Source of the DNA: an uncultured cyanobacterium
Lineage (GTDB): Bacteria > Cyanobacteriota > Cyanobacteriia > Pseudanabaenales > Pseudanabaenaceae
Direction of reading: 5' to 3'
DNA: 64,000 nucleotides
NCBI GenBank assembly: GCA_963703315.1
Contig: OY969811.1
Span: forward strand, 3,392,001 to 3,456,000
Position numbers and translations under genes: made by a program. Positions within the stretch are counted from its first letter, which is position 1; each line of letters starts with the position of its first letter. Shown piece by piece: positions 41,169-52,050 of the stretch. The notes under the pieces were generated by a model. It was not told where the DNA came from. It saw only the letters and a program-made list of their open reading frames with translations, and did not search any database.

Positions 41169-41208
41169 TTGGATTTCAACTACTAGAGCGTTACTACTGT
41201 ATCAAAAG

Positions 41209-41250
41209 TAACTAAATATAACTTATCCATAACCCAATATATAACTTTTT
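41209..41250 (+). promoter_or_regulatory. Phased TAAC-box array 1
   Basis: TAAC at 41209, 41219, 41230, 41242. Confidence 0.5.
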
Positions 41251-41635
41251 TGTGAAAAATAGGATGAATTAGTCTCCCCATCGTAAATTTCTTCGTGTAG
41301 AATATGAGCATACAAGTATTACAGATAAACCGTAGGAAGTTCACTGTAAGAAATGTTTACATCCCTCTTATTCATTTGTGTGAATAGAGAAGATAAATCA
41401 ATCTCATGTAATTAGTCTATTCATTAAGAATGAAATCAGATAGATAGGGATATTTGATTTGTAAGGCTAAGTTACGATAGGTTTACGCAACCTATTCTTT
41501 TCTACTAGTTGAGTCCATACATAGATAGTAGTCTTAGCGTAAATAAGTATGTAACTGAAATATCAACACAACTTAACATCGGCTCTTTTGTGGATTACTT
41601 AAATACAAACTCTTAAAAAATAGGTTTATCCGATC

Positions 41636-42313
41636 ATGAAATATTTATCTTCTGCAATTATTTCCACCAGCGTTCTTGCTGTTGCTCTTGTTGCAGGTTC
41701 TGCCAACGCTGCTAGCATCAGTTACAGTTTTAGTCCTATTGACACTTCTGAACTATCTGCGTTTGATGATGGTACAACTCCTGGCTATACCTTTGAATTA
41801 GGTGGGCTATCGGCTGAACAAAATATTAGAACTGGCTCTGTTGAGTTTCAGAATGCTCAACCCGCAGGTGATCAGACTAATTACTTGGCAGTACAACCTG
41901 ATCCTACAATTGAAGATGGAGTTCCAGGATTTGCTTTAGGCGCTATCATCTACAACTCGCCTCAGCTACTTAGCAACTTCAGCATTTATTGGGGTTCTGC
42001 CGATAAGTCTAATAAAGTTGAATTTTTTAACGGTGACACTTTTATTCAAGCGCTCACTGGTTTAGATGTGTTTGGTAGCAACGCTAATGGTGATTGGTAC
42101 GATCCTGCGGCAAACCGTTATGTAACATTTACTGGGATCAATACCCAATTCAACAAGATCAGATTCTCTACAGGTCAAATCGCTTTCGAGTTTGATCAGA
42201 AGCGTCCTGTTCCTGTTCCTGCAATTGTTCCTGGTATTGCTTTGGCAGCAGCTTTCTTTGGTAGTAAGGCTCTCAAGCGTAAGCAAAATGAAGCTAGTAA
42301 GCTAATTGCTTAG
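41636..42313 (+). CDS. Exosortase-type surface protein with PEP-CTERM-like tail (Npun_F0296-like)
   Basis: Signal peptide (ANA), YWGSADKSN motif, C-terminal PVPVPAIVPG + TM + KRK. Confidence 0.75.
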   Translation: MKYLSSAIISTSVLAVALVAGSANAASISYSFSPIDTSELSAFDDGTTPGYTFELGGLSAEQNIRTGSVEFQNAQPAGDQTNYLAVQPDPTIEDGVPGFALGAIIYNSPQLLSNFSIYWGSADKSNKVEFFNGDTFIQALTGLDVFGSNANGDWYDPAANRYVTFTGINTQFNKIRFSTGQIAFEFDQKRPVPVPAIVPGIALAAAFFGSKALKRKQNEASKLIA

Positions 42314-42393
42314 TTTTTCACATCAACTCACCTGTTGTAAAAGAGAGTGGCAGCGCATTGCGCCGCCACTCTCTTTTGGATTATTGAAAATTT

Positions 42394-43539
42394 ATGCAAA
42401 CATTACAGATAGGTACAAGCTGGTTTCCAGAAGAGGCAGGTGGTTTGGCGCGTGTTTATTATGGATGTGTAAACTATCTGCCAAAAGTTGGTGTTGAAGT
42501 AAATGGCTTAGTTACTGGTTCCGATCGCGTTATCCAAAGTTCAGGCGGCAAAGTGACAGCCTTTGCGATCGCCGATAGCTCAACATTGAGGCGATCGCTA
42601 GATCTTAGAAAGGCGGTTAAGCTAGCTTTAAGCAATTCTGATTATGATTTAGTTGCCACACATTTCGCACTCTATGCATTACCTGCACTAGATTTACTGG
42701 GTAGTCTGCCATTAGTGACACATTTTCATGGACCTTGGGCATTGGAGAGTAAAGCCGAAGGTGCGGGATCGTTATCGACTTGGGGAAAGTGGGCGATTGA
42801 GAAATTGGTTTATCAACGGTCAAATGGATTTATTGTGTTGTCGGAAGCATTTCGGCAAATTTTGCATCAGTATTACAATGTGCCGCTAGAAAAGATTTTT
42901 GTTGTGGGTGGGGGGATTGATACTGCCGCGTTTAATGTGGGGTTAACGATCGCCGAAGCTAGAGCCAAGCTGGGATGGCAGCAAGATCGACGGATCATTC
43001 TTTGTGTGCGTCGCTTAGTCCAGCGTATGGGGTTGGAGAATTTGATTGCGGCGATCGCTCTAGTCCGCAAAGAGCATCCCGATGTGTTGTTATTAATTGC
43101 AGGTAGAGGAGCGATCTCGGAATCATTGCGATCGCAAATTCAAGAGTTACAACTGGAAAATCACGTTCAACTATTGGGTTTTGTTGCCGATCAGGACTTG
43201 GCGATCGCCTATCGTGCTGCTGAGCTATCAATTGTACCAACTGTCTCCTTAGAAGGATTTGGACTGATTGTGATTGAGTCTTTGGCAGCAGGTACACCTG
43301 TTTTAGGCACGCCCATCGGTGGTATTCCTGAAATTTTACAGCCCTTAAATCCTGATCTGGTATTAGCAGGTACTCAGGTCGAGCAGTTAGCCCAAGGCAT
43401 GATCGAGGCTCTCTCAGGTGAGCGACAAATTCCTAGCGCTGAAGCTTGTCAAGACTATGTACGTCAACATTATGATTGGCAAGCGATCGCTGAACAAATG
43501 CGATCTGTGTATCAACAAGTCATCCAAAAAAGTGATTAA
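42394..43539 (+). CDS. GT4 glycosyltransferase, HepB-like
   Basis: WFP..GGL.R, HFALY, FHGPW..ES, RRLVQRMGL, EGFGLIVIESLA; HepB likeness is from recall, not alignment. Confidence 0.8.
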   Translation: MQTLQIGTSWFPEEAGGLARVYYGCVNYLPKVGVEVNGLVTGSDRVIQSSGGKVTAFAIADSSTLRRSLDLRKAVKLALSNSDYDLVATHFALYALPALDLLGSLPLVTHFHGPWALESKAEGAGSLSTWGKWAIEKLVYQRSNGFIVLSEAFRQILHQYYNVPLEKIFVVGGGIDTAAFNVGLTIAEARAKLGWQQDRRIILCVRRLVQRMGLENLIAAIALVRKEHPDVLLLIAGRGAISESLRSQIQELQLENHVQLLGFVADQDLAIAYRAAELSIVPTVSLEGFGLIVIESLAAGTPVLGTPIGGIPEILQPLNPDLVLAGTQVEQLAQGMIEALSGERQIPSAEACQDYVRQHYDWQAIAEQMRSVYQQVIQKSD

Positions 43540-43576
43540 AAGCATTGCTTTGCAATGCTTTTAATCACTTTTTTGG
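43524..43576. terminator. 25-bp perfect inverted repeat between convergent genes
   Basis: CCAAAAAAGTGATTAAAAGCATTGC-TTT-GCAATGCTTTTAATCACTTTTTTGG. Confidence 0.75.
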
Positions 43577-43599
43577 GAACGGTTTGCGCCGCCATTAGC

Positions 43600-46500
43600 C
43601 TAGTCTTCGATCGCTCCAAGAGCAATTAGCTTTGCTTTTTGAGCAGGAGTTAAACCCGATGCTTCTTTAATATTCAGTCCCTCATAGGGGCGGGGATCGC
43701 GATAGGTCATTATGCATTCTCCTGTGGCAATATCCCAAAGTTTGACAGTTTCATCACGACTACCACTTGCGATTAAATTGCCATGAGGAGCAAATGACAC
43801 TGCATAGACATTTCCAGTATGTCCAACTAGCGTATTGATAGCTTTACCAGTCTGCCAGTTCCAAATATTAATTTGGGTATCTTCACCTGCACTAGCTAGC
43901 AACATTCCTTTAGGGTCAGCCGCAACTGTTAAGACATTGCCCTCATGACCAATGGGTTCTTGGATTAGTTCACCACTTTTGAGATTCCATCGATAGATCA
44001 TTTTGTCACCACATCCAAAGGCAATATGGGGTTGCGATGGCATAAATGCAATATTAGAAGTAAGTGTAGGAAGTTGATCCATTGTTTGTAGACAACCTCC
44101 TGTTTGTGTATCCCAAATTTTTACAGTTTTATCGCGACTACTGCTGATGATATAGCGATCATCGGGACTAAAGGCGATCGCTAAAATTGCGGAACTATGA
44201 CCTTGCAAAACTTGGAAACAGTTGCCAGTGACGATATCTCTGAGTTTGATCACTTTACTCGTTTCACCCGTAGCCAGAAACTTACTATCATGACTAAATA
44301 CTAAGGTTCTCGCTAAATCAGGATGCTCGGTAATTGTAGCTAGGCAATTGCCACTACTGACATCCCATAGTTTGATCGTGCAGTCTTCGGCACAACTGGC
44401 GATGAGAGTCCCGCTAGGACTAAAGGCAACTTGCCAGACATGACCCGCATGACCATGCAAAGCCCGAATGCATTTACCTGACTTGATATCCCACAGACGA
44501 ATAATCGAGTCATCACCGCCACTCGCTAAGATGGTTTGCTCAAGGTTAAAAGCAACCGATCGCACCGCATTGGTATAGCCTTGCAAAATCCGAAATTGCT
44601 GTCCTGAAGTGACTTCCCACAGGTTTAGCAAATGTTCATTGGAGATATTACTGGTCGTTTGGCTCTCATTTTTGTCTGTCCACGATCGCCCCGTATGACC
44701 TTGAAACGTCCGCATACAAAAGCCTGTATCAATTTCCCAAAGCTTAACCATCTCATCACCACTACTACTAGCGAGAATCAAGCGTTCAGGGTGAAAAGCA
44801 ACGGAGCGAACCCAATGGTTATGTCCCGTTAAGGTTTTAAAGCATTGCGCTGTCTTCAGATCCCAAAGCCGAATCGTGCGATCGCCACTTCCCGTTGCCA
44901 ATGTCGAACCGTCGTGACTAAAACTGACAGCAAAAACAGTATGGGTATGCCCTGTAAAGGTTTTGATGCAAGCACCTGTTTCCGTATTCCATAGGCGTGT
45001 AGTTTTGTCTTCACTACCACTAGCTAACACATTGCCATTATGACTAAAGGCGATCGACCAGATGATATCTTCATGTCCTTGGAATACCCGCAGACATTCT
45101 CCAGTTTCAGTATCCCAAAGTCTCACCGAGCAGTCGTCACTACTGCTCGCCAGTAAGTTGCCCTTAGGGCTAAAAGCGACATCTTCAACAATATCTTCAT
45201 GTCCATACAATACTTTAATACATTGCCCCGATCGCCACAGTCTCACCGTGCGATCAGCATGACCACTAGCCAAAGTCGTACCATCGGGACTAAACCCTAC
45301 CGACATCACCGCACCGATATATCCTTGAAGAGTGCTGAGGCAATCCCCTGTCGATACATCCCATAACTTGATCGATTGATCGACACTACTGCTAGCTAAG
45401 ACAGTTCCTTCAGGATTGAAAGAGACGGAAACCACCCATCCCTTATGACCTCGATAAGTTAGCAAAGGCTTGCCATCACTGACTCGCCAAAGATGGATAT
45501 CGCCTTTAGTATCACCGATCGCTAATAACTTGCCATTAGCACTAAAGGCAACTGACAGGACACCACCAATTACTTCCGCAAATACCGATTTAATCAAAGC
45601 CGTTTGAGCAAAGTTTACTCGGTGTAATTTGACTTCGGGTAAATAAGCTTGACGGATCGCCAGATAGGAAAAGTCAGTACCTGTTAAGTCAATCCCCAGA
45701 TTGCATAACAAATTGATAATGTTCCCACCGCCATAGCCAAAGGTGGATTTAAGTTCCCCTTCAGGTCGCAGTTCTCTTCTGCGTAATTCGGCAACGGTTT
45801 GGAATAGTTCTTTCACCACCATTTGCTTACTACCCAAACGCCCTAACAGCTTTGTCACCAAAGGTTCGAGAATCAGGCGAATTTGACTTTGGCGAATATA
45901 GTCTTTAGCAGTGGCTTTAATCAGTGCATAATGCCGTAGATAGAAAAGTTGTCTATTGAGCTTAGATTGAATACCTGGTAAAACGCCGAGGGGATGCTCT
46001 TGAGTAATTTCTTGATAAATTTGATCGATTAATAGATTAGTCACAAACTCCATGACTACAGGCTGCTGGGTAAAACCTGCGGCAGTTTGTTCAACTAGCG
46101 ATCGCCGCTTTAGCGATCGTAGAGACATCATTAAATAGTTTTGTTCGATTGTTGGCACAATGTCCGAACGTAACTCACTAGGCTGGACTGGCTCACGATT
46201 AATTGCCAGCCACAACATAATTTGCTTTTCATAGGCAGTCAGTCTCTGGTATTGCTGCTCAATGAGATTGCCAATCCCACTAAAAATAATGGTCTTCTGT
46301 TCTAAAAACCGATCAATACTCCCTGAATAAAGATCCTTAATCGAAGTTGCCGCAATTTTCAGAGCCAAGGGATTACCGCGATACCAGTCCACTAAACGAT
46401 GCAAATCGGTTGCCATCGCTTTGATCCCCTTGGCTTCAAGGACTCGCTCTGCCGCCGATTCATCTAGCCCCGTTAATTGCAACGCTCTGACGGGCAGAAT

Positions 46501-47328
46501 ATCGCCCTCTAGGGTTGCCACTTCCTCAGGCATTTCACGACTGGTAATAATCACACAACTGCGATGGACAACTTCACCCGCCCTTCTTAATAGAGAGCCA
46601 TAACCTTCATAATCCTTGCGGTATGCTCCCGCTTGAGCTTCATCTTTGAGGACTGACTCAAAATTGTCTAACACTAATAAACAGCGATAGCGCTGCAAAT
46701 ATTCCATCAGGCGGGAAATGAGGGCATTGGTATCGGTGGTATCAGGGGTTTCACGCTGGTGAGAGAGAAAATGGATCACCGCCGTTAACATCTCACTTGG
46801 CGTTTTGGCATTATTTAGCGATCGCCACACCACAAAGTCAAATTTTTCTTGCAACTGCTGAGCTAGTTTCACGGATAGCGCTGTTTTACCCAAACCACCC
46901 ATACCCAAAAGGGCGATCAACCGACAGCGATCGCGGTCAACCCATTGCTCTAGAGTATTTAGCTCTGCTTCCCGTCCATAGAAAAAAGAGACATCAATAA
47001 CCTCACCCCAATCTTGGTGACCATTTGGTACAGGATTTAAATCAGGGATTGTCGCAGCAGTAGCATCTACTTTTTGACTTTGCAGCTTGCGACGGATTAT
47101 GCTCTGCACTGTACTTTTAGTGACTTTTTCACCAAAAGTTTCTGTCAATAAGTGCCAAAGCTTATGGCTAACTAATTTAATGTAACCTGCATCATAGCCA
47201 GTCTGCTTCGCGATCTCAGAGTAAGACTGCCCTTGCCATACACCAAGAAAGACAGACTGCTCAACTCGAGTCAGACTGCGCTGTGCTAAAGACAACTCTA
47301 TAAATGCTACCGCTTCATCAGCCGTCAT
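43600..47328 (-). CDS. STAND NTPase: N-terminal HTH, NB-ARC, pentapeptide-like segment, WD40 repeats
   Basis: WQGQSYSEIA..GY..GYIK HTH; DWGE, FYGR, GMGGLGKT, LLVLDNFE, GNPLAL; more than a dozen GH..WD repeats; RPYEGLNI tail. Confidence 0.9.
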   Translation of the reverse strand: MTADEAVAFIELSLAQRSLTRVEQSVFLGVWQGQSYSEIAKQTGYDAGYIKLVSHKLWHLLTETFGEKVTKSTVQSIIRRKLQSQKVDATAATIPDLNPVPNGHQDWGEVIDVSFFYGREAELNTLEQWVDRDRCRLIALLGMGGLGKTALSVKLAQQLQEKFDFVVWRSLNNAKTPSEMLTAVIHFLSHQRETPDTTDTNALISRLMEYLQRYRCLLVLDNFESVLKDEAQAGAYRKDYEGYGSLLRRAGEVVHRSCVIITSREMPEEVATLEGDILPVRALQLTGLDESAAERVLEAKGIKAMATDLHRLVDWYRGNPLALKIAATSIKDLYSGSIDRFLEQKTIIFSGIGNLIEQQYQRLTAYEKQIMLWLAINREPVQPSELRSDIVPTIEQNYLMMSLRSLKRRSLVEQTAAGFTQQPVVMEFVTNLLIDQIYQEITQEHPLGVLPGIQSKLNRQLFYLRHYALIKATAKDYIRQSQIRLILEPLVTKLLGRLGSKQMVVKELFQTVAELRRRELRPEGELKSTFGYGGGNIINLLCNLGIDLTGTDFSYLAIRQAYLPEVKLHRVNFAQTALIKSVFAEVIGGVLSVAFSANGKLLAIGDTKGDIHLWRVSDGKPLLTYRGHKGWVVSVSFNPEGTVLASSSVDQSIKLWDVSTGDCLSTLQGYIGAVMSVGFSPDGTTLASGHADRTVRLWRSGQCIKVLYGHEDIVEDVAFSPKGNLLASSSDDCSVRLWDTETGECLRVFQGHEDIIWSIAFSHNGNVLASGSEDKTTRLWNTETGACIKTFTGHTHTVFAVSFSHDGSTLATGSGDRTIRLWDLKTAQCFKTLTGHNHWVRSVAFHPERLILASSSGDEMVKLWEIDTGFCMRTFQGHTGRSWTDKNESQTTSNISNEHLLNLWEVTSGQQFRILQGYTNAVRSVAFNLEQTILASGGDDSIIRLWDIKSGKCIRALHGHAGHVWQVAFSPSGTLIASCAEDCTIKLWDVSSGNCLATITEHPDLARTLVFSHDSKFLATGETSKVIKLRDIVTGNCFQVLQGHSSAILAIAFSPDDRYIISSSRDKTVKIWDTQTGGCLQTMDQLPTLTSNIAFMPSQPHIAFGCGDKMIYRWNLKSGELIQEPIGHEGNVLTVAADPKGMLLASAGEDTQINIWNWQTGKAINTLVGHTGNVYAVSFAPHGNLIASGSRDETVKLWDIATGECIMTYRDPRPYEGLNIKEASGLTPAQKAKLIALGAIED

Positions 47329-47347
47329 AGATGCGCCTTAAATATAC

Positions 47348-47395
47348 CAATATAACTTTTATATAACCTCGCTCTTGTCATTCTATGACGTTTTA
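47348..47395 (+). promoter_or_regulatory. Phased TAAC-box array 2
   Basis: CAATATAACTTTTATATAAC (47348-47367), TAAC at 47353 and 47364, TGAC at 47386. Confidence 0.6.
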
Positions 47396-47614
47396 TGGTT
47401 TGTGGTATTTTGTTGCAAATATTGTTTTTTGTGGTTAGCAACCCTAGATAGCCCAATTACACCCAAATAGTCTCTGCATCTATAGTTATTGGAGGTTTGT
47501 GTGAGTGATTTCTAACTAAGTATGCTTAAGCCTTAAAAGTTGTGGCAACAGGCTGTGTGATCGCCACAGCTTTGAGATCTGGTCATCGTGACGAGGTAAT
47601 TAGTTTAGTAATTA

Positions 47615-47650
47615 CATTCATAGTGCCATTCATAGTGCCATTCATAGTGC
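47615..47650. repeat. Three perfect 12-bp tandem repeats
   Basis: CATTCATAGTGC x3. Confidence 0.9.
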
Positions 47651-47895
47651 TAAAGCAAAGGCACTTACAAGTATTGCTATACCACACTTGTTCAATGATT
47701 GCTATATACTCTCCCAATGCATAGTTATCATAAAGGCAAGAATTGCTATACAGGATAAAATTTTCATGTTCTCTAAGTAACTGGGCGCAATTAAATATAA
47801 AACTCCAAAATCTGTGGCGCGACTACCCACAAGAAATCTAGTTATCAAATCGCAGAAACTTTTAGTATTTCTAAAGACCAACAAAGTATAAAACT

Positions 47896-50085
47896 ATGAA
47901 TGTCAATACTGCTAAATTACCTAGCTCAGCGATCGCTGAACAAGATCCAGGATATGGGAAAATTTTTGCAGTTCTACTTCGTAGGCGGTTTTGGTTTTTA
48001 GGAGGCTTAGGGCTAGGACTAGTAATTGCCATTTTTATGAACATTTACGCCAAACCCAAATACACAAGTATTATGCGACTATTGGTCGAGTCAACTTATA
48101 AGTCTCGCTCCACCTCCTTTATTGACTCCAATGTGCAAATTGACTACGCAACGCAACTTAACTTGCTGCAAAGTTCATCAATGTTTCAAAAAGCAGCGAA
48201 TTTACTAGCTACTGAGTATCCAGGTATTACTGGCTCTGAGCTGCAATCATTAAAAATTGGAATGTTAGGAGGTAAAGAGGCTCCAACTAAAATTGTTGAA
48301 GTGCAATATACTGCCTTAGATCCTGTCAAAACCCGACAAGTTTTAAGAGCTTTTCAAAAAGTATATACAGACTATAATCGAGAGCAACAAGAAAAGCGCT
48401 TGCAAACGGGTTTAGCAGGTATTGATGAGCAAGTTACGAATGTTCGCAAAAGCATTGCCGAAGCCACTGAGGCCATTGAGGTCTTTCGGCGAAAAAACAA
48501 CTTATTTGATGCGAATCAACGGGTTACAGAAGTTACTTCGGCTCTAAATGGAATCGAACAACAAAAACGTGCCGCCAAATTAGAATATGAGCAAGCAACT
48601 ACGAAGTTAAACTCCTTACAGGAAAAACTAAATCTATCTTCACAAGATGCTGTATTAATAACTCGATTAAATCAGTCTCAACGCTATCAAACTCTCATTT
48701 CAGAAATGCAAGGAATTGAAGTTGCCCTAAATCGTGAAAAGTCGAGATTTCAGTCTAATAGCCCTGTTGTTGATGCTCTAGAACTACGATTTAAACAGCA
48801 ACAAGCTAGTCTTGAAGAAGAAAGAAGAAGTATTCTCGGAGATGCAAAATTAGCGAGTTATCCTAAATGGAATGGGGATCAACTGAGCGGTATTGACTTG
48901 AGTTTGGCAAATCAAATTGTTGAGACCCAAAGTCAACTTACTCTGTTACAGTCACGTCTTGAATCTTTATCATCTCAAGAAGCATCTCTGCGTAACGAGA
49001 TTAATCGCTTGCCCAAGTTACTTGGTGAATATGAAACGTTAAAACCAAAACTCCAAATTCAACAGGAGACTTTGCAAACACTACTCAAAAATCGCCAAGA
49101 GTTGAGTTTAGAGATTGCACGTGGTGGTTTTGATTGGCAGGTAGTTGAGGAACCTAGTCTTGGTTCGAGCGATGCTTCTGAGAGTCTACGCAGAAATTTA
49201 TTGTTGGGTGTAGTTGCTGGTTTATTTATTGGGGGATCAGCCGCCTTTATTCGAGATATGCAGGATGACACGATGCATACCTATGATGAGTTAGAGCAGC
49301 AAATTTCTTCCATATCTTTATTAGGTATGACTCCTCAATATTTACAAACTGAAGAGTCTGGATCTAATTTTTTACCACAGTTTCTCAAGGGGCAGTCAGT
49401 TTCACCACTTACGCTGGAGATCATTCAATGGTTACCTTTCCGTGAGTCGTTAGATCTGATTTATAAAAATATTCAGCTCAATACCTATGCCCAAGAAACC
49501 GAACTGCGATCGCTGGTGATCACCTCAGCAATACCTAGTGAGGGCAAATCAACGATCGCCCTCGGACTCGCCACTAGTGCCGCAAGGCTGCACAAACGGG
49601 TGCTACTAATTGATGGTGATATGCGATCGCCATCTTTACATAAGCAGCTTAACCTTCCTAATGAAAGAGGTTTGTCAACATTACTAGCGAGCAAAGGTAG
49701 CGTGGATAGCCGCGATGTGATCCAGTCATCTAACTCAGCGATCGATATCCTGACCGCAGGACCAATTCCTAGTGATTCCGTAACCTTACTTAGTTCAGAA
49801 TGGATGCAAAAGTTAATTGCTAGTTTTGAGCAGGATTATGATCTGGTGATTATTGACTCGCCACCGATTTTGGGGACAGTTGATACCATTCAAATTGCTT
49901 CTTGTAGTGGTGGTGTCGTTGCTGTTGCGAGGATTGATCGCATTACTCGTGGTGACTTTTCGCAAGCAATTTCTGTTCTCCAAAAGCTAAATTTGATTGG
50001 GGTAATTGCTAACGCCGCGAAAGATCTACCCCACAGTTATAAATCAGTTACCACCAACGATGATGACGATGAAGAAGAGGAATAA
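47896..50085 (+). CDS. wzc: Wzc/GumC polysaccharide co-polymerase and BY-kinase
   Basis: Two TM helices flanking a coiled-coil periplasmic domain; ITSAIPSEGKST, LIDGDMRSP, IIDSPP. Confidence 0.9.
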   Translation: MNVNTAKLPSSAIAEQDPGYGKIFAVLLRRRFWFLGGLGLGLVIAIFMNIYAKPKYTSIMRLLVESTYKSRSTSFIDSNVQIDYATQLNLLQSSSMFQKAANLLATEYPGITGSELQSLKIGMLGGKEAPTKIVEVQYTALDPVKTRQVLRAFQKVYTDYNREQQEKRLQTGLAGIDEQVTNVRKSIAEATEAIEVFRRKNNLFDANQRVTEVTSALNGIEQQKRAAKLEYEQATTKLNSLQEKLNLSSQDAVLITRLNQSQRYQTLISEMQGIEVALNREKSRFQSNSPVVDALELRFKQQQASLEEERRSILGDAKLASYPKWNGDQLSGIDLSLANQIVETQSQLTLLQSRLESLSSQEASLRNEINRLPKLLGEYETLKPKLQIQQETLQTLLKNRQELSLEIARGGFDWQVVEEPSLGSSDASESLRRNLLLGVVAGLFIGGSAAFIRDMQDDTMHTYDELEQQISSISLLGMTPQYLQTEESGSNFLPQFLKGQSVSPLTLEIIQWLPFRESLDLIYKNIQLNTYAQETELRSLVITSAIPSEGKSTIALGLATSAARLHKRVLLIDGDMRSPSLHKQLNLPNERGLSTLLASKGSVDSRDVIQSSNSAIDILTAGPIPSDSVTLLSSEWMQKLIASFEQDYDLVIIDSPPILGTVDTIQIASCSGGVVAVARIDRITRGDFSQAISVLQKLNLIGVIANAAKDLPHSYKSVTTNDDDDEEEE

Positions 50086-50132
50086 TCCCCAATCCGAATA
50101 ATTTGTACAGCGAAGCCACACAAATTATTTGG

Positions 50133-50192
50133 ATGAAAACCCTAAAAGCTGTGGCGCACGCTCCGCGTGCGCCACAGCTTTTAGGGTTTTCA
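50133..50192. repeat. Long palindrome with family D hairpin core downstream of wzc
   Basis: TGAAAACCCTAAAAGCTGTGGCGCACGC-TCC-GCGTGCGCCACAGCTTTTAGGGTTTTCA. Confidence 0.8.
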
Positions 50193-50246
50193 TTTTGTCC
50201 TCACTTGGCTAGAAATATTCCTAAATTTTCAGCAAAATATCTTTAG

Positions 50247-50292
50247 CAATATAACTTTTATATAACTTTTAGTATGACCTTTTAGTAACTTA
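50247..50292 (+). promoter_or_regulatory. Phased TAAC-box array 3
   Basis: Same 20-mer as 47348 at 50247-50266; boxes at 50252, 50263, 50275 (TGAC), 50286. Confidence 0.6.
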
Positions 50293-50579
50293 TAGTGGTT
50301 GCTATATCTATGGAATTAATGGATAAGTATAGATAGAAATATACGATATCTATCTTGCAAGTTATTGAAATATAGATACAGATATTCGCACTGAACGAAC
50401 ACGGAATACTGATTCACTCAACCCTATTTGGTGAATTCCTGTTTAGTGAAAGTGTATTTGTTTTTAGGGTTCCTCTAACATTCCTACTAACTTATTGGGA
50501 CTCTTAAATTCATATCAATACCGAATTTTTTAATTTACTTCGTTACAAGCAAGCTAAATAGAAGCTGGCACAGAGAGAC

Positions 50580-51533
50580 ATGAAATTGATTGTGAGGGAA
50601 AGTATGACTAGTTTTACTGCAAATAGTCCAGAAGCTATTGAGCTTACAGGTGAATCTCAAAGAAGTTCTTTGGCATCTGAATTAATGCTCAAACTAAAGC
50701 AAGGTCAAACTTTCGTAGATTCTTTTTTCCGTAGCCATCTCAACATATTTAGGTTTCTTGCAACGGATAGTTCTTATTTCGGTAGCCTTGTTCATAAGCC
50801 TAACTTCAAATTGATGCGCGTTGAGCCTGAGATTGGTGAAGCTGAACTTAAGCATTTGGCTGATGTCTGCCACAGATCTGACAAAGCTGTATTTCTCAAT
50901 TTGCCTCAAGCTCATGAACTACCACAGCAACACAAGGCGATCGCTTGGTCAGTAAAACGTGCTTTGGATTGGTTAGCGGCTTTCGTGATTCTGACAGTCC
51001 TTAGCCCAGTCATGCTTTGCTTAGCGGTGATCATCTCTAGCACATCAAGTGGTTCCATTTTCTTCCATCAATGGCGTGTTGGGGAGGGTGGCAAGCTATT
51101 TCGGATTATTAAGTTTCGCACCATGATCACCGATGCTGACAAACTACACCATCTCGTCATGAGTGGTCAAACAGGTCTGCATAAGTGTGAGGATGATCCC
51201 CGCATTACACCCGTCGGACGATGGATGCGTAAATATAGCCTTGATGAACTGCCTCAACTATTTAATGTGTTGCGTGGTGAAATGAGTCTTGTCGGTCCTC
51301 GTCCTTGGGCTTTGTATGACGCTTTACGCATTAATGGCAATGGTAAAAGAAGATTAAATTCATTACCAGGAGTGACAGGAGCTTGGCAAGTAAGTCTGAG
51401 ATCGACCATGCTTGATCTAGATGCAGTTACAGAGTGCGATTTAAATTACCTGCGTAATTGGACTTTATGGTCAGACTTGAAAATTCTATTAATGACCGTT
51501 CCTAAAGTTTTGTCTGGATTTGGAGCTTGCTAA
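50580..51533 (+). CDS. Priming sugar transferase (WcaJ/WbaP C-terminal type), HepC-like
   Basis: KRALD + TM, KFRTM, DPRIT.VG..MRKYSLDELPQLFNVLRGEMSLVGPRP; N-terminal extension with LADVC..SDKAVFL. Confidence 0.85.
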   Translation: MKLIVRESMTSFTANSPEAIELTGESQRSSLASELMLKLKQGQTFVDSFFRSHLNIFRFLATDSSYFGSLVHKPNFKLMRVEPEIGEAELKHLADVCHRSDKAVFLNLPQAHELPQQHKAIAWSVKRALDWLAAFVILTVLSPVMLCLAVIISSTSSGSIFFHQWRVGEGGKLFRIIKFRTMITDADKLHHLVMSGQTGLHKCEDDPRITPVGRWMRKYSLDELPQLFNVLRGEMSLVGPRPWALYDALRINGNGKRRLNSLPGVTGAWQVSLRSTMLDLDAVTECDLNYLRNWTLWSDLKILLMTVPKVLSGFGAC

Positions 51534-51759
51534 ATTTTCCCAAGGTTTGTAGGTAGATGAGCAGATATTTACTATCTTTTCAGAGCTGATTTGGAAGTAA
51601 TGCTTGAATTAAATTAATCACTTTATTTCACAAAAATATCTGTCTGTCATATATCAAAAAGTTTGCCCATGTATTTACGTGGGCTTTTCTGTATTTACTA
51701 GTAGCAATGCAAGTTTTGCTATATGGGTTATAGTGGCGGCGCAAAGCGCCGCCACTATA

Positions 51760-52050
51760 TTAACGGTTATGCAATCGTGGATGCATAATCGATGGAATTT
51801 TTGCATTTCCGAGTAAATGTTTTTCAATAATTGTCTGAGCTTTTTTCGGTGTGATATGCCAGTAATAAACTTCGTCAGGCAAAACAACCACAATTGGACC
51901 AGAGCCGCATAGTCCTAGACAGCCACAAGCTTCTACCGTTACATTATCAATTTCCTGTTGTTGGAAAGTTGCCAACACTTCAACCGCACCATCTTTAGCG
52001 CAGGTGCGATGTTGACATACAAGAACTTTACGCACAGGAACATCATCCAC
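51760..52050 (-). CDS. Thioredoxin-like [2Fe-2S] ferredoxin
   Basis: VC...C..DG and CLGLCGSGP, YYW. Confidence 0.85.
   Translation of the reverse strand: MDDVPVRKVLVCQHRTCAKDGAVEVLATFQQQEIDNVTVEACGCLGLCGSGPIVVVLPDEVYYWHITPKKAQTIIEKHLLGNAKIPSIMHPRLHNR

Follow-up and report, generated by a model that had tools for sequence, protein, structure and literature searches.

Phased box arrays and a candidate one-component STAND regulator at a surface-glycan locus of a Pseudanabaenaceae cyanobacterium

We analyzed a 64,000-nucleotide stretch of DNA (the window) from an uncultured cyanobacterium of the Pseudanabaenaceae (assembly GCA_963703315.1, contig OY969811.1, positions 3,392,001 to 3,456,000), in which a surface-polysaccharide locus surrounds the gene of a STAND protein with a helix-turn-helix (HTH) at its N-terminus, an NB-ARC core and WD40 repeats, and in which short TAAC-containing boxes recur in phased arrays upstream of the genes. 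The host genome (G000 in our numbering of genomes) is a single contig of 4.57 Mb, and the closest named relatives for the STAND gene are Pseudanabaena strains. The gene order is rimP, surface protein, GT4 glycosyltransferase, STAND gene in reverse orientation, wzc and HepC-like transferase. The exosortase-dependent surface protein (41636..42313, + strand, 225 amino acids) belongs to the Npun_F0296 family, ends in VPVP, a transmembrane segment and a basic tail, and scores 53.8 bits with NF050191 (cut-off 29); the GT4 enzyme (42394..43539, + strand, 381 amino acids) matches PF00534 and PF13439. The STAND protein (43600..47328, - strand, 1242 amino acids), our proposed regulator, was assigned from domain matches, fold and orthologues. 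It is followed by a Wzc-type polysaccharide co-polymerase/tyrosine autokinase (47896..50085, + strand, 729 amino acids), which exceeds the TIGR01007 cut-off, and by the HepC-like priming glycosyltransferase (50580..51533, + strand, 317 amino acids), with 221 bits for NF045514 against a cut-off of 140. STAND orthologues at 76-88% were found in 20 of 24 genus genomes and a piece of one in G011, and most relatives share the locus order, usually with a second GT4 gene between the STAND gene and wzc; in this genome that second GT4 gene lies at G000:2299238, without an array.

Exploring the upstream regions, we found all 11 box cores where the original prediction had placed them. Four boxes precede the surface-protein/GT4 pair (41206..41250, + strand; cores at 41209, 41219, 41230 and 41242), tandem ATATAACYT boxes lie between the -10-like element and the start codon of the STAND gene (47350..47371, + strand), and four boxes precede the hepC-like gene (50249..50295, + strand; cores at 50252, 50263, 50275 and 50286, spacing 11/12/11). 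The identical 20-mer CAATATAACTTTTATATAAC at 47348 and 50247 was verified, these being its sole copies in the genome, which holds no copy with one mismatch. TATGAC(G/C)TTTTA does follow both copies, but at different spacing, 33 and 23 bp from the first core, and the distances to the + strand genes, claimed to be 300-500 bp, are 394-427, 510-543 and 294-328 bp, one of them slightly beyond that range. The core at 47386 is correctly positioned, but TATGAC occurs there in just 3 of 20 orthologous promoters and TAAGAC in 11; this core adjoins a minus-strand -10-like hexamer, TAGAAT in this genome (47380..47385), which as TANAAT is kept in 20/20 orthologues and probably belongs to the STAND promoter. 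To compare the arrays with chance, 2701 intergenic segments were set against 20 dinucleotide shuffles (10 shuffles for ATAACY pairs). Runs of four T[AG]AC cores spaced 10-12 bp were met 7 times against a shuffle mean of 0.15 (maximum 1), and ATAACY pairs peaked at exactly 11 bp, with 10 real against 0.7 shuffled pairs. A loose three-core rule gave a weaker result (14 against 5.3, maximum 8); it also picks up CTTAACCT-type arrays and is therefore not specific. Thus the excess over shuffled intergenic DNA is clear for the four-core and 11-bp pair rules and weak for three cores; the boxes are real and beyond chance. At G000:3837797 and 2882354 the genome has arrays of four YTTAAC units, 10-12 bp apart, which differ from the ATAAC boxes and which we take to resemble cyanobacterial Pho boxes.

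The arrays are kept at orthologous loci, as expected of functional sites by the original prediction. An ATAACYTTT tandem precedes 20/20 STAND orthologues, one of them with CAAC as second core, and the hepC array is present in 19/19 genus genomes with full upstream DNA, this genome included, one further genome being truncated. The single hepC homologue from another family had no array upstream. Since the tandem sits between the TANAAT hexamer and the STAND start codon, its position suggests self-repression, and 47350..47371 would be both a self-repression operator and a shared site for the divergent gene. That gene was predicted to be wzc, and here the array does lie in the STAND/wzc gap, but in relatives it faces the GT4 gene, being located at most 600 bp upstream of the second GT4 gene in 27 of the 30 loci that hold one. 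In the surface-protein slot of relatives, 6/8 surface-protein-like genes also have an array. Target arrays have their downstream end some 35-55 bp before a conserved -10-like element; downstream of the hepC array, alignment of 19 upstream regions points to TTGCTA...GATAAGT as promoter-like elements (50299..50328, + strand). Other repeats of the locus include short intergenic palindromes of the GTGGCG...CGCCAC type, resembling a dispersed repeat family and flanking the locus genes (42345-42375, 47540-47575, 50145-50185 and 51730-51760), and, within the STAND/wzc gap, TTCATAGTGCCA repeated three times in tandem (47616-47652).

Scanning the genome with an array matrix trained on the window's own boxes (genome 99.5th percentile 15.8) revealed further arrays before two STAS protein genes, a cellulose-synthase-like gene, sigF, the gene of a giant RTX-repeat protein, a small gene preceding a CDP-glucose dehydratase cluster, the gene of an unknown 435-amino-acid protein, and genes of PEP-CTERM-like proteins. 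The STAS, 435-amino-acid and PEP-CTERM-like genes are not linked to the locus. In most arrays TAAC reads on the sense strand of the target. Among surface proteins with a VPVP/VPTP tail, 4/6 have arrays (scores 12.9-21.0) and 2/6 have none; a seventh match to the tail pattern was a membrane protein and was excluded. Conservation in relatives was checked for STAS, hepC, the 435-amino-acid gene, sigF and the surface-protein slot. The STAS gene (G000:567261) has its array in 21/21 STAND-bearing genus genomes scored (16-28, against the 15.8 percentile) and in 4/6 STAND-bearing genomes of other genera. The 435-amino-acid gene (G000:1622399-1623706; L346:2400-3707) has one in 25/28; its product, without Pfam matches and with an uninformative result in an Atlas search, is a candidate partner or output. 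In this genome the STAS and 435-amino-acid promoters have equal spacing from the last core to GTGAATAAT, an arrangement met at no other site of the genome, and at STAS loci 23 of 32 GTGAATAAT-type motifs sit 42-44 bases past a core. This element resembles the SigJ J-box GGGaAtacT as given in an excerpt of PMC6495340, a likeness that may point to the sigma factor using it. A link to the N. punctiforme PEP-CTERM genes that an excerpt of PMC12188702 lists as indirectly SigJ-dependent was rejected, the one promoter checked, that of the pNPUN05 PEP-CTERM gene, being without an array; a scan with the window's surface protein for chromosomal PEP-CTERM genes of N. punctiforme returned no relatives. 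The SigF-type sigma factor itself (G000:2951817-2953091, L035; 424 amino acids) has an N-terminal extension of ~170 amino acids that is conserved in the genus and unmatched in the other families searched.

The architecture of the STAND protein is compatible with a role in transcription. Residues 1-87 (47068..47328, - strand), predicted to fold as an HTH, were modeled as a LuxR/NarL-type HTH with a mean confidence (pLDDT) of 93.8, in line with the original prediction, and Atlas assigned PF26355 (HTH_VMAP-M9) to them at 0.95. The best fold matches were RcsB and NarL (Z 7.9-7.7, root-mean-square deviation 2.3-2.6, 64-66 residues aligned), and the top 11 were all LuxR/NarL-type DNA-binding domains at Z 6.9-7.9, modest values given the tool's caution line of Z 8. 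The recognition helix spans residues 47-65, in which covariation singles out Leu52 as a candidate for setting specificity. The NB-ARC core (46354..46983, - strand; PF00931, E 2e-14) carries Walker A GMGGLGKT (residue 142), Walker B LLVLDNFE (217), ITSRE (261) and GNP (318), and these nucleotide-switch motifs are invariant or nearly so among 25 homologues; with Walker A/B, sensor arginine, GxP motif and a nucleotide-binding, helical and winged-helix fold, the protein is a STAND NTPase of the NB-ARC type. A WD40 sensor region follows (approximately 43640..45560, - strand; 11 stretches matching PF00400). The model of residues 1-600 matched the folds of ZAR1, Apaf-1, CED-4 and MalT (nucleotide-binding oligomerization domain 8bob, E 8e-8), and the joining of a DNA-binding HTH to a STAND core is shared with STAND transcription activators as a functional kind. 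Identity as a sigma70 factor was rejected, the match to Sigma70_r4_2 being sub-threshold (E 0.006) and region 2 giving no match.

Relatives of the protein point to a correspondence between the recognition helix and the box. The scan kept the best 80 of 470 homologues, 72 of them with enough upstream DNA. Antisense-strand phased ACYT chains lay upstream of 33/72 homologues compared with 14/201 control genes (shuffle mean 5.1), and chains of at least three units upstream of 10 homologues and 2 control genes; same-genus paralogues with the helix YIKDVGSE have instead three CCGACCTTT units at an 11-bp period. We then compared core and residue at the position equivalent to Leu52 in 99 distinct homologues, 22 of which fell into other groups. 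With Asp, Asn or Thr, YGAC pairs were found in 25/41 and TAAC pairs in none; with Leu, Phe, His or Tyr, TAAC pairs in 16/24; with Gln, G[AC]AC pairs (cores GAAC/GCAC) in 6/10; and with Glu, CCAC pairs in 1/2. On a quick tree, TAAC-type members fall in three places apart from one another. Among 15 plasmid homologues looked at later, the four that could be classified all fit the code, the others comprising five of an unclassified subfamily, five that were uncallable and one with Lys. Given that the residue classes were set after the data had been seen and that the rows are kin, the code is a strong suggestion and not a test statistic. The divergent neighbours checked often encode secreted or surface proteins (RTX-repeat, Calx-beta, subtilase, amidase/LysM, porin, Ig-domain and PEP-CTERM). 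On a Gloeothece PCC 7822 plasmid (L394, 932-1108) three CCTAACG units spaced 12-13 bp lie in the gap between a homologous STAND gene and a divergent PEP-CTERM gene, and four GGCTGACTT-like units at a 10-bp period lie directly upstream of a NACHT protein whose N-terminal domain is of another kind (G000:2610009-2612330, L348), which suggests another self-regulating STAND.

To relate the boxes to the STAND gene, we examined 48 genus genomes, 41 with this STAND clade and seven without. The exact tandem was present in 41/41 of the former, a count that takes in the STAND gene's own box and is weakened by it, and in 2/7 of the latter. The 435-amino-acid gene was present in 29/41 STAND-bearing and 0/7 STAND-less genomes, and no hepC orthologue was found in 7/7 genomes lacking the STAND gene. 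A tree of 26 STAS loci placed the seven STAND-less genomes in four lineages. The STAS array was gone from the clade G021/G023/G069/G073 (stem 0.17), and in G061 (single contig, branch 0.18) the STAS region was still alignable with every core mutated in place. G018 (branch 0.015), in which a clean deletion of the locus has left usp and rimP 1 kb apart, retains the STAS array. Arrays are thus retained and lost together with the STAND gene, and the expectation that they would not persist in its absence held for the two old loss lineages, where they vanish or decay, but not for the very recent loss in G018. The two old, independent losses support a link between STAND and box; G018 contradicts this link or is too young. 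L022, L081 and G011:C457 have a split or interrupted STAND orthologue with the boxes still in place, possibly early stages of loss.

Together, the sequence comparisons argue that the STAND protein is likely to be a one-component transcription factor of the Pseudanabaenaceae that represses its own gene and switches on a regulon of surface-glycan and surface-protein genes. That it reads the boxes is very likely; that it activates its targets is reasonably likely, and oligomerization with ligand gating, argued by analogy, is somewhat less securely favored. At rest, the protein would be an ADP-bound monomer, as in other STANDs. A signal bound by the WD40 region would convert it into an ATP-bound oligomer that sets several HTHs on one DNA face and binds cooperatively to 2-5 ATAACYTTT boxes arrayed at one box per turn of the helix, each HTH contacting a box and residue 52 setting the two bases that precede AC. 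Because target arrays end ~35-55 bp before a -10-like element, binding there would activate; at its own promoter, with the tandem downstream of the -10-like hexamer, binding would repress. The output would be a programme of surface polysaccharide and exosortase-sorted surface proteins. The STAS protein is a possible feedback link, and a cytoplasmic protein partner is our guess for the signal.

Besides the post hoc classes and the kinship of the rows, several observations weigh against this reading. The independent old losses are just two in number, G018 keeps its array, and G066 keeps the STAS array too, an uninformative case in which both locus flanks end at contig breaks. In G044 and G045 the STAND start has no array within 260 bp, the STAS array scores low in G085 and G086 (5.7 and 9.9), and sigF was rejected as a conserved target, its array being specific to this genome (1/24 genus genomes with upstream DNA reach 15.8). 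The class array was not present in 8/24 rows with Leu, Phe, His or Tyr and in 16/41 with Asp, Asn or Thr, the family tree is quick with a weak backbone, the matrix was trained on the boxes that it describes, and for the HTH Foldseek gave no match at E<=0.001 and the fold Z stays under 8.

Another regulator, OmpR/PhoB-type, LuxR-type or unknown, might read the arrays and have been lost together with the locus. OmpR/PhoB regulators typically bind direct repeats of 11 bp, this genome does have CTTAACCT-type arrays, and the array of G018 persists without the STAND gene. However, the OmpR-type candidates, named as alternative readers at the outset, do not track the boxes: G061, with its decayed boxes, has orthologues of 8/12 at 76-99%, two others are absent from box-bearing G002 as well, and the last two occur in box-less genomes. 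An unrelated reader would moreover leave the change of box with the STAND protein's own helix residue unexplained, and we consider this explanation unlikely; the screen for readers covered OmpR-type proteins, XssQ and one HTH-NB-ARC paralogue. A 699-amino-acid HTH-NB-ARC paralogue near the STAS gene was rejected as reader because similar proteins persist in box-less genomes and their own promoters carry an ATGTCTC-type repeat. This paralogue (G000:553443-555542, L036) has no WD40 region, is widespread in the genus and has the ATGTCTC-type repeat upstream; an HTH-only protein of 172 amino acids is encoded at G000:2229723.

The STAND protein might also read the boxes as a repressor released by the signal, or bind them without ligand-gated oligomerization. 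The geometry at its own gene does suggest repression, and box decay after loss of STAND is compatible with either sign of regulation. Yet the arrays of STAS, the 435-amino-acid gene and hepC stop short of conserved promoter-like elements that lie downstream, hepC is lost with STAND in 7/7 genomes, as expected if its expression depends on STAND, and the intact switch motifs speak against binding without gated oligomerization, making this version improbable.

As a reader, the strongest rival is the XssQ orthologue of this genome (XRE-HTH-NACHT), with the WD40 STAND as a mere regulon member, because the published box AAGTTNNAC is one base away. XssQ binds AAGTTNNAC, single or tandem, upstream of exopolysaccharide (EPS) genes according to excerpts of PMC8205485, 5/11 window boxes differ from it by one base, and a full-length orthologue (35%) lies at G000:2022795. 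On the other side, none of the 11 window boxes matches AAGTTNNAC exactly, and the boxes are oriented opposite to XssQ boxes relative to their targets. No XssQ orthologue turned up in G001-G006, of which two are single contigs, yet the arrays persist there (hepC 5/5, STAS 6/6), and G021, G023, G069 and G073 have the orthologue but no longer the array; G003 and G006 retain a short HTH protein of the XssQ type, and G001, G002 and G005 have none above 44%. XssQ as box reader is therefore strongly disfavored, and we give it very little weight. Its orthologue (G000:2022795-2025110, L044) lies near a hybrid kinase and small stress-type genes, not in an EPS cluster, with single AAGTTATAC boxes nearby, and its regulon may differ from that of Synechocystis. 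Finally, a defence or cell-death NLR with unrelated boxes, which the ZAR1, Apaf-1 and CED-4 folds, the link of the name HTH_VMAP-M9 to vWA-MoxR conflict systems and the many plasmid-borne homologues might recall, is next to incredible, since the search for an enzymatic or pore-forming effector domain came up empty, PADLOC (2023 library) returned just a WD-region match and one weak NTPase match, both partial, the gene is syntenic and 76-88% conserved within an EPS locus, and the box covariation would be left unexplained; a transcriptional response to a phage signal is conceivable.

Extending this to the family, we lean slightly toward cyanobacterial HTH-NB-ARC-WD40 proteins being a large unrecognized family of Apaf-1-shaped transcription factors, each paralogue oligomerizing on its own signal and reading its own phased array. 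If so, specificity would be set largely by one recognition-helix residue, paralogues would switch on divergent surface or secreted genes, and in the Pseudanabaenaceae one member would have come to act as master switch for a dispersed regulon of slime and surface-protein genes. NLR-like proteins of bacteria are mostly taken as defence or death proteins; here an Apaf-1-shaped family gains a testable transcription-factor role, for which sites, targets and a single-residue specificity switch are predicted, and the exopolysaccharide and PEP-CTERM-type surface proteins of a common freshwater family of filamentous cyanobacteria gain a candidate master regulator. As CCGAC-box members are plasmid-borne in tractable strains (Nostoc PCC 7120, PCC7120DELTA_RS29010; N. 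punctiforme, NPUN_RS36870), where both diverge from genes of large surface proteins, the family claim can be tested at once. The regulon had been called undescribed; a STAND activator of cyanobacterial EPS genes with a similar box is already published (XssQ, excerpts of PMC8205485), but a description of this protein family as regulator, of its box, regulon or residue code was not found in the open-access PMC and bioRxiv literature, in which a search for the Pfam name HTH_VMAP-M9 returned no paper.

Compared with known systems, Apaf-1 and plant NLRs share the order effector, NB-ARC, helical region and WD40, and ZAR1, Apaf-1 and CED-4 gave the top fold and sequence matches, whereas the effector slot, occupied by CARD, coiled-coil or TIR in those proteins, holds a DNA-binding HTH here. 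MalT of E. coli carries its DNA-binding domain, which is LuxR-type, at the C-terminus and has a helical/TPR-like sensor, unlike the N-terminal HTH and WD40 sensor of the window protein. In excerpts of PMC10427625, MalT is a STAND activator that oligomerizes on its inducer and binds several promoter sites cooperatively. Proteins with sigma70 r4_2 and NB-ARC/WD40, having the same domain and architecture as ours, are catalogued in PMC11119718 as accessory domains of sigma-like proteins, and the passages on them give no binding site, regulon or function. XssQ (Slr5058) of Synechocystis PCC 6803 is likewise a cyanobacterial STAND with an N-terminal HTH and, as part of the XssS/XssR/XssQ synechan regulon, activates glycosyltransferase genes including a priming transferase via short boxes (excerpts of PMC8205485 and bioRxiv 10.64898/2025.12.18.694786). 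Its boxes on pSYSM include tandem copies 12 and 23 bp apart, and AAGTTNNAC differs by one base from AAGTTATAT here; the window boxes face the opposite way, with 2-5 per array. XssQ has 783 amino acids, HTH-NACHT-NCH2 and no WD40, in contrast to the 1242 amino acids, NB-ARC and WD40 of the window protein; tblastn between the two gave no match, and the XssQ orthologue here is a separate gene. None of the locus genes forms an adjacent kinase/receiver pair like XssS/XssR, and the genome gave no match to the xssA/xssE sulfotransferase at E<1e-5. In the best reading, the window STAND works like XssQ and MalT and belongs to neither family.

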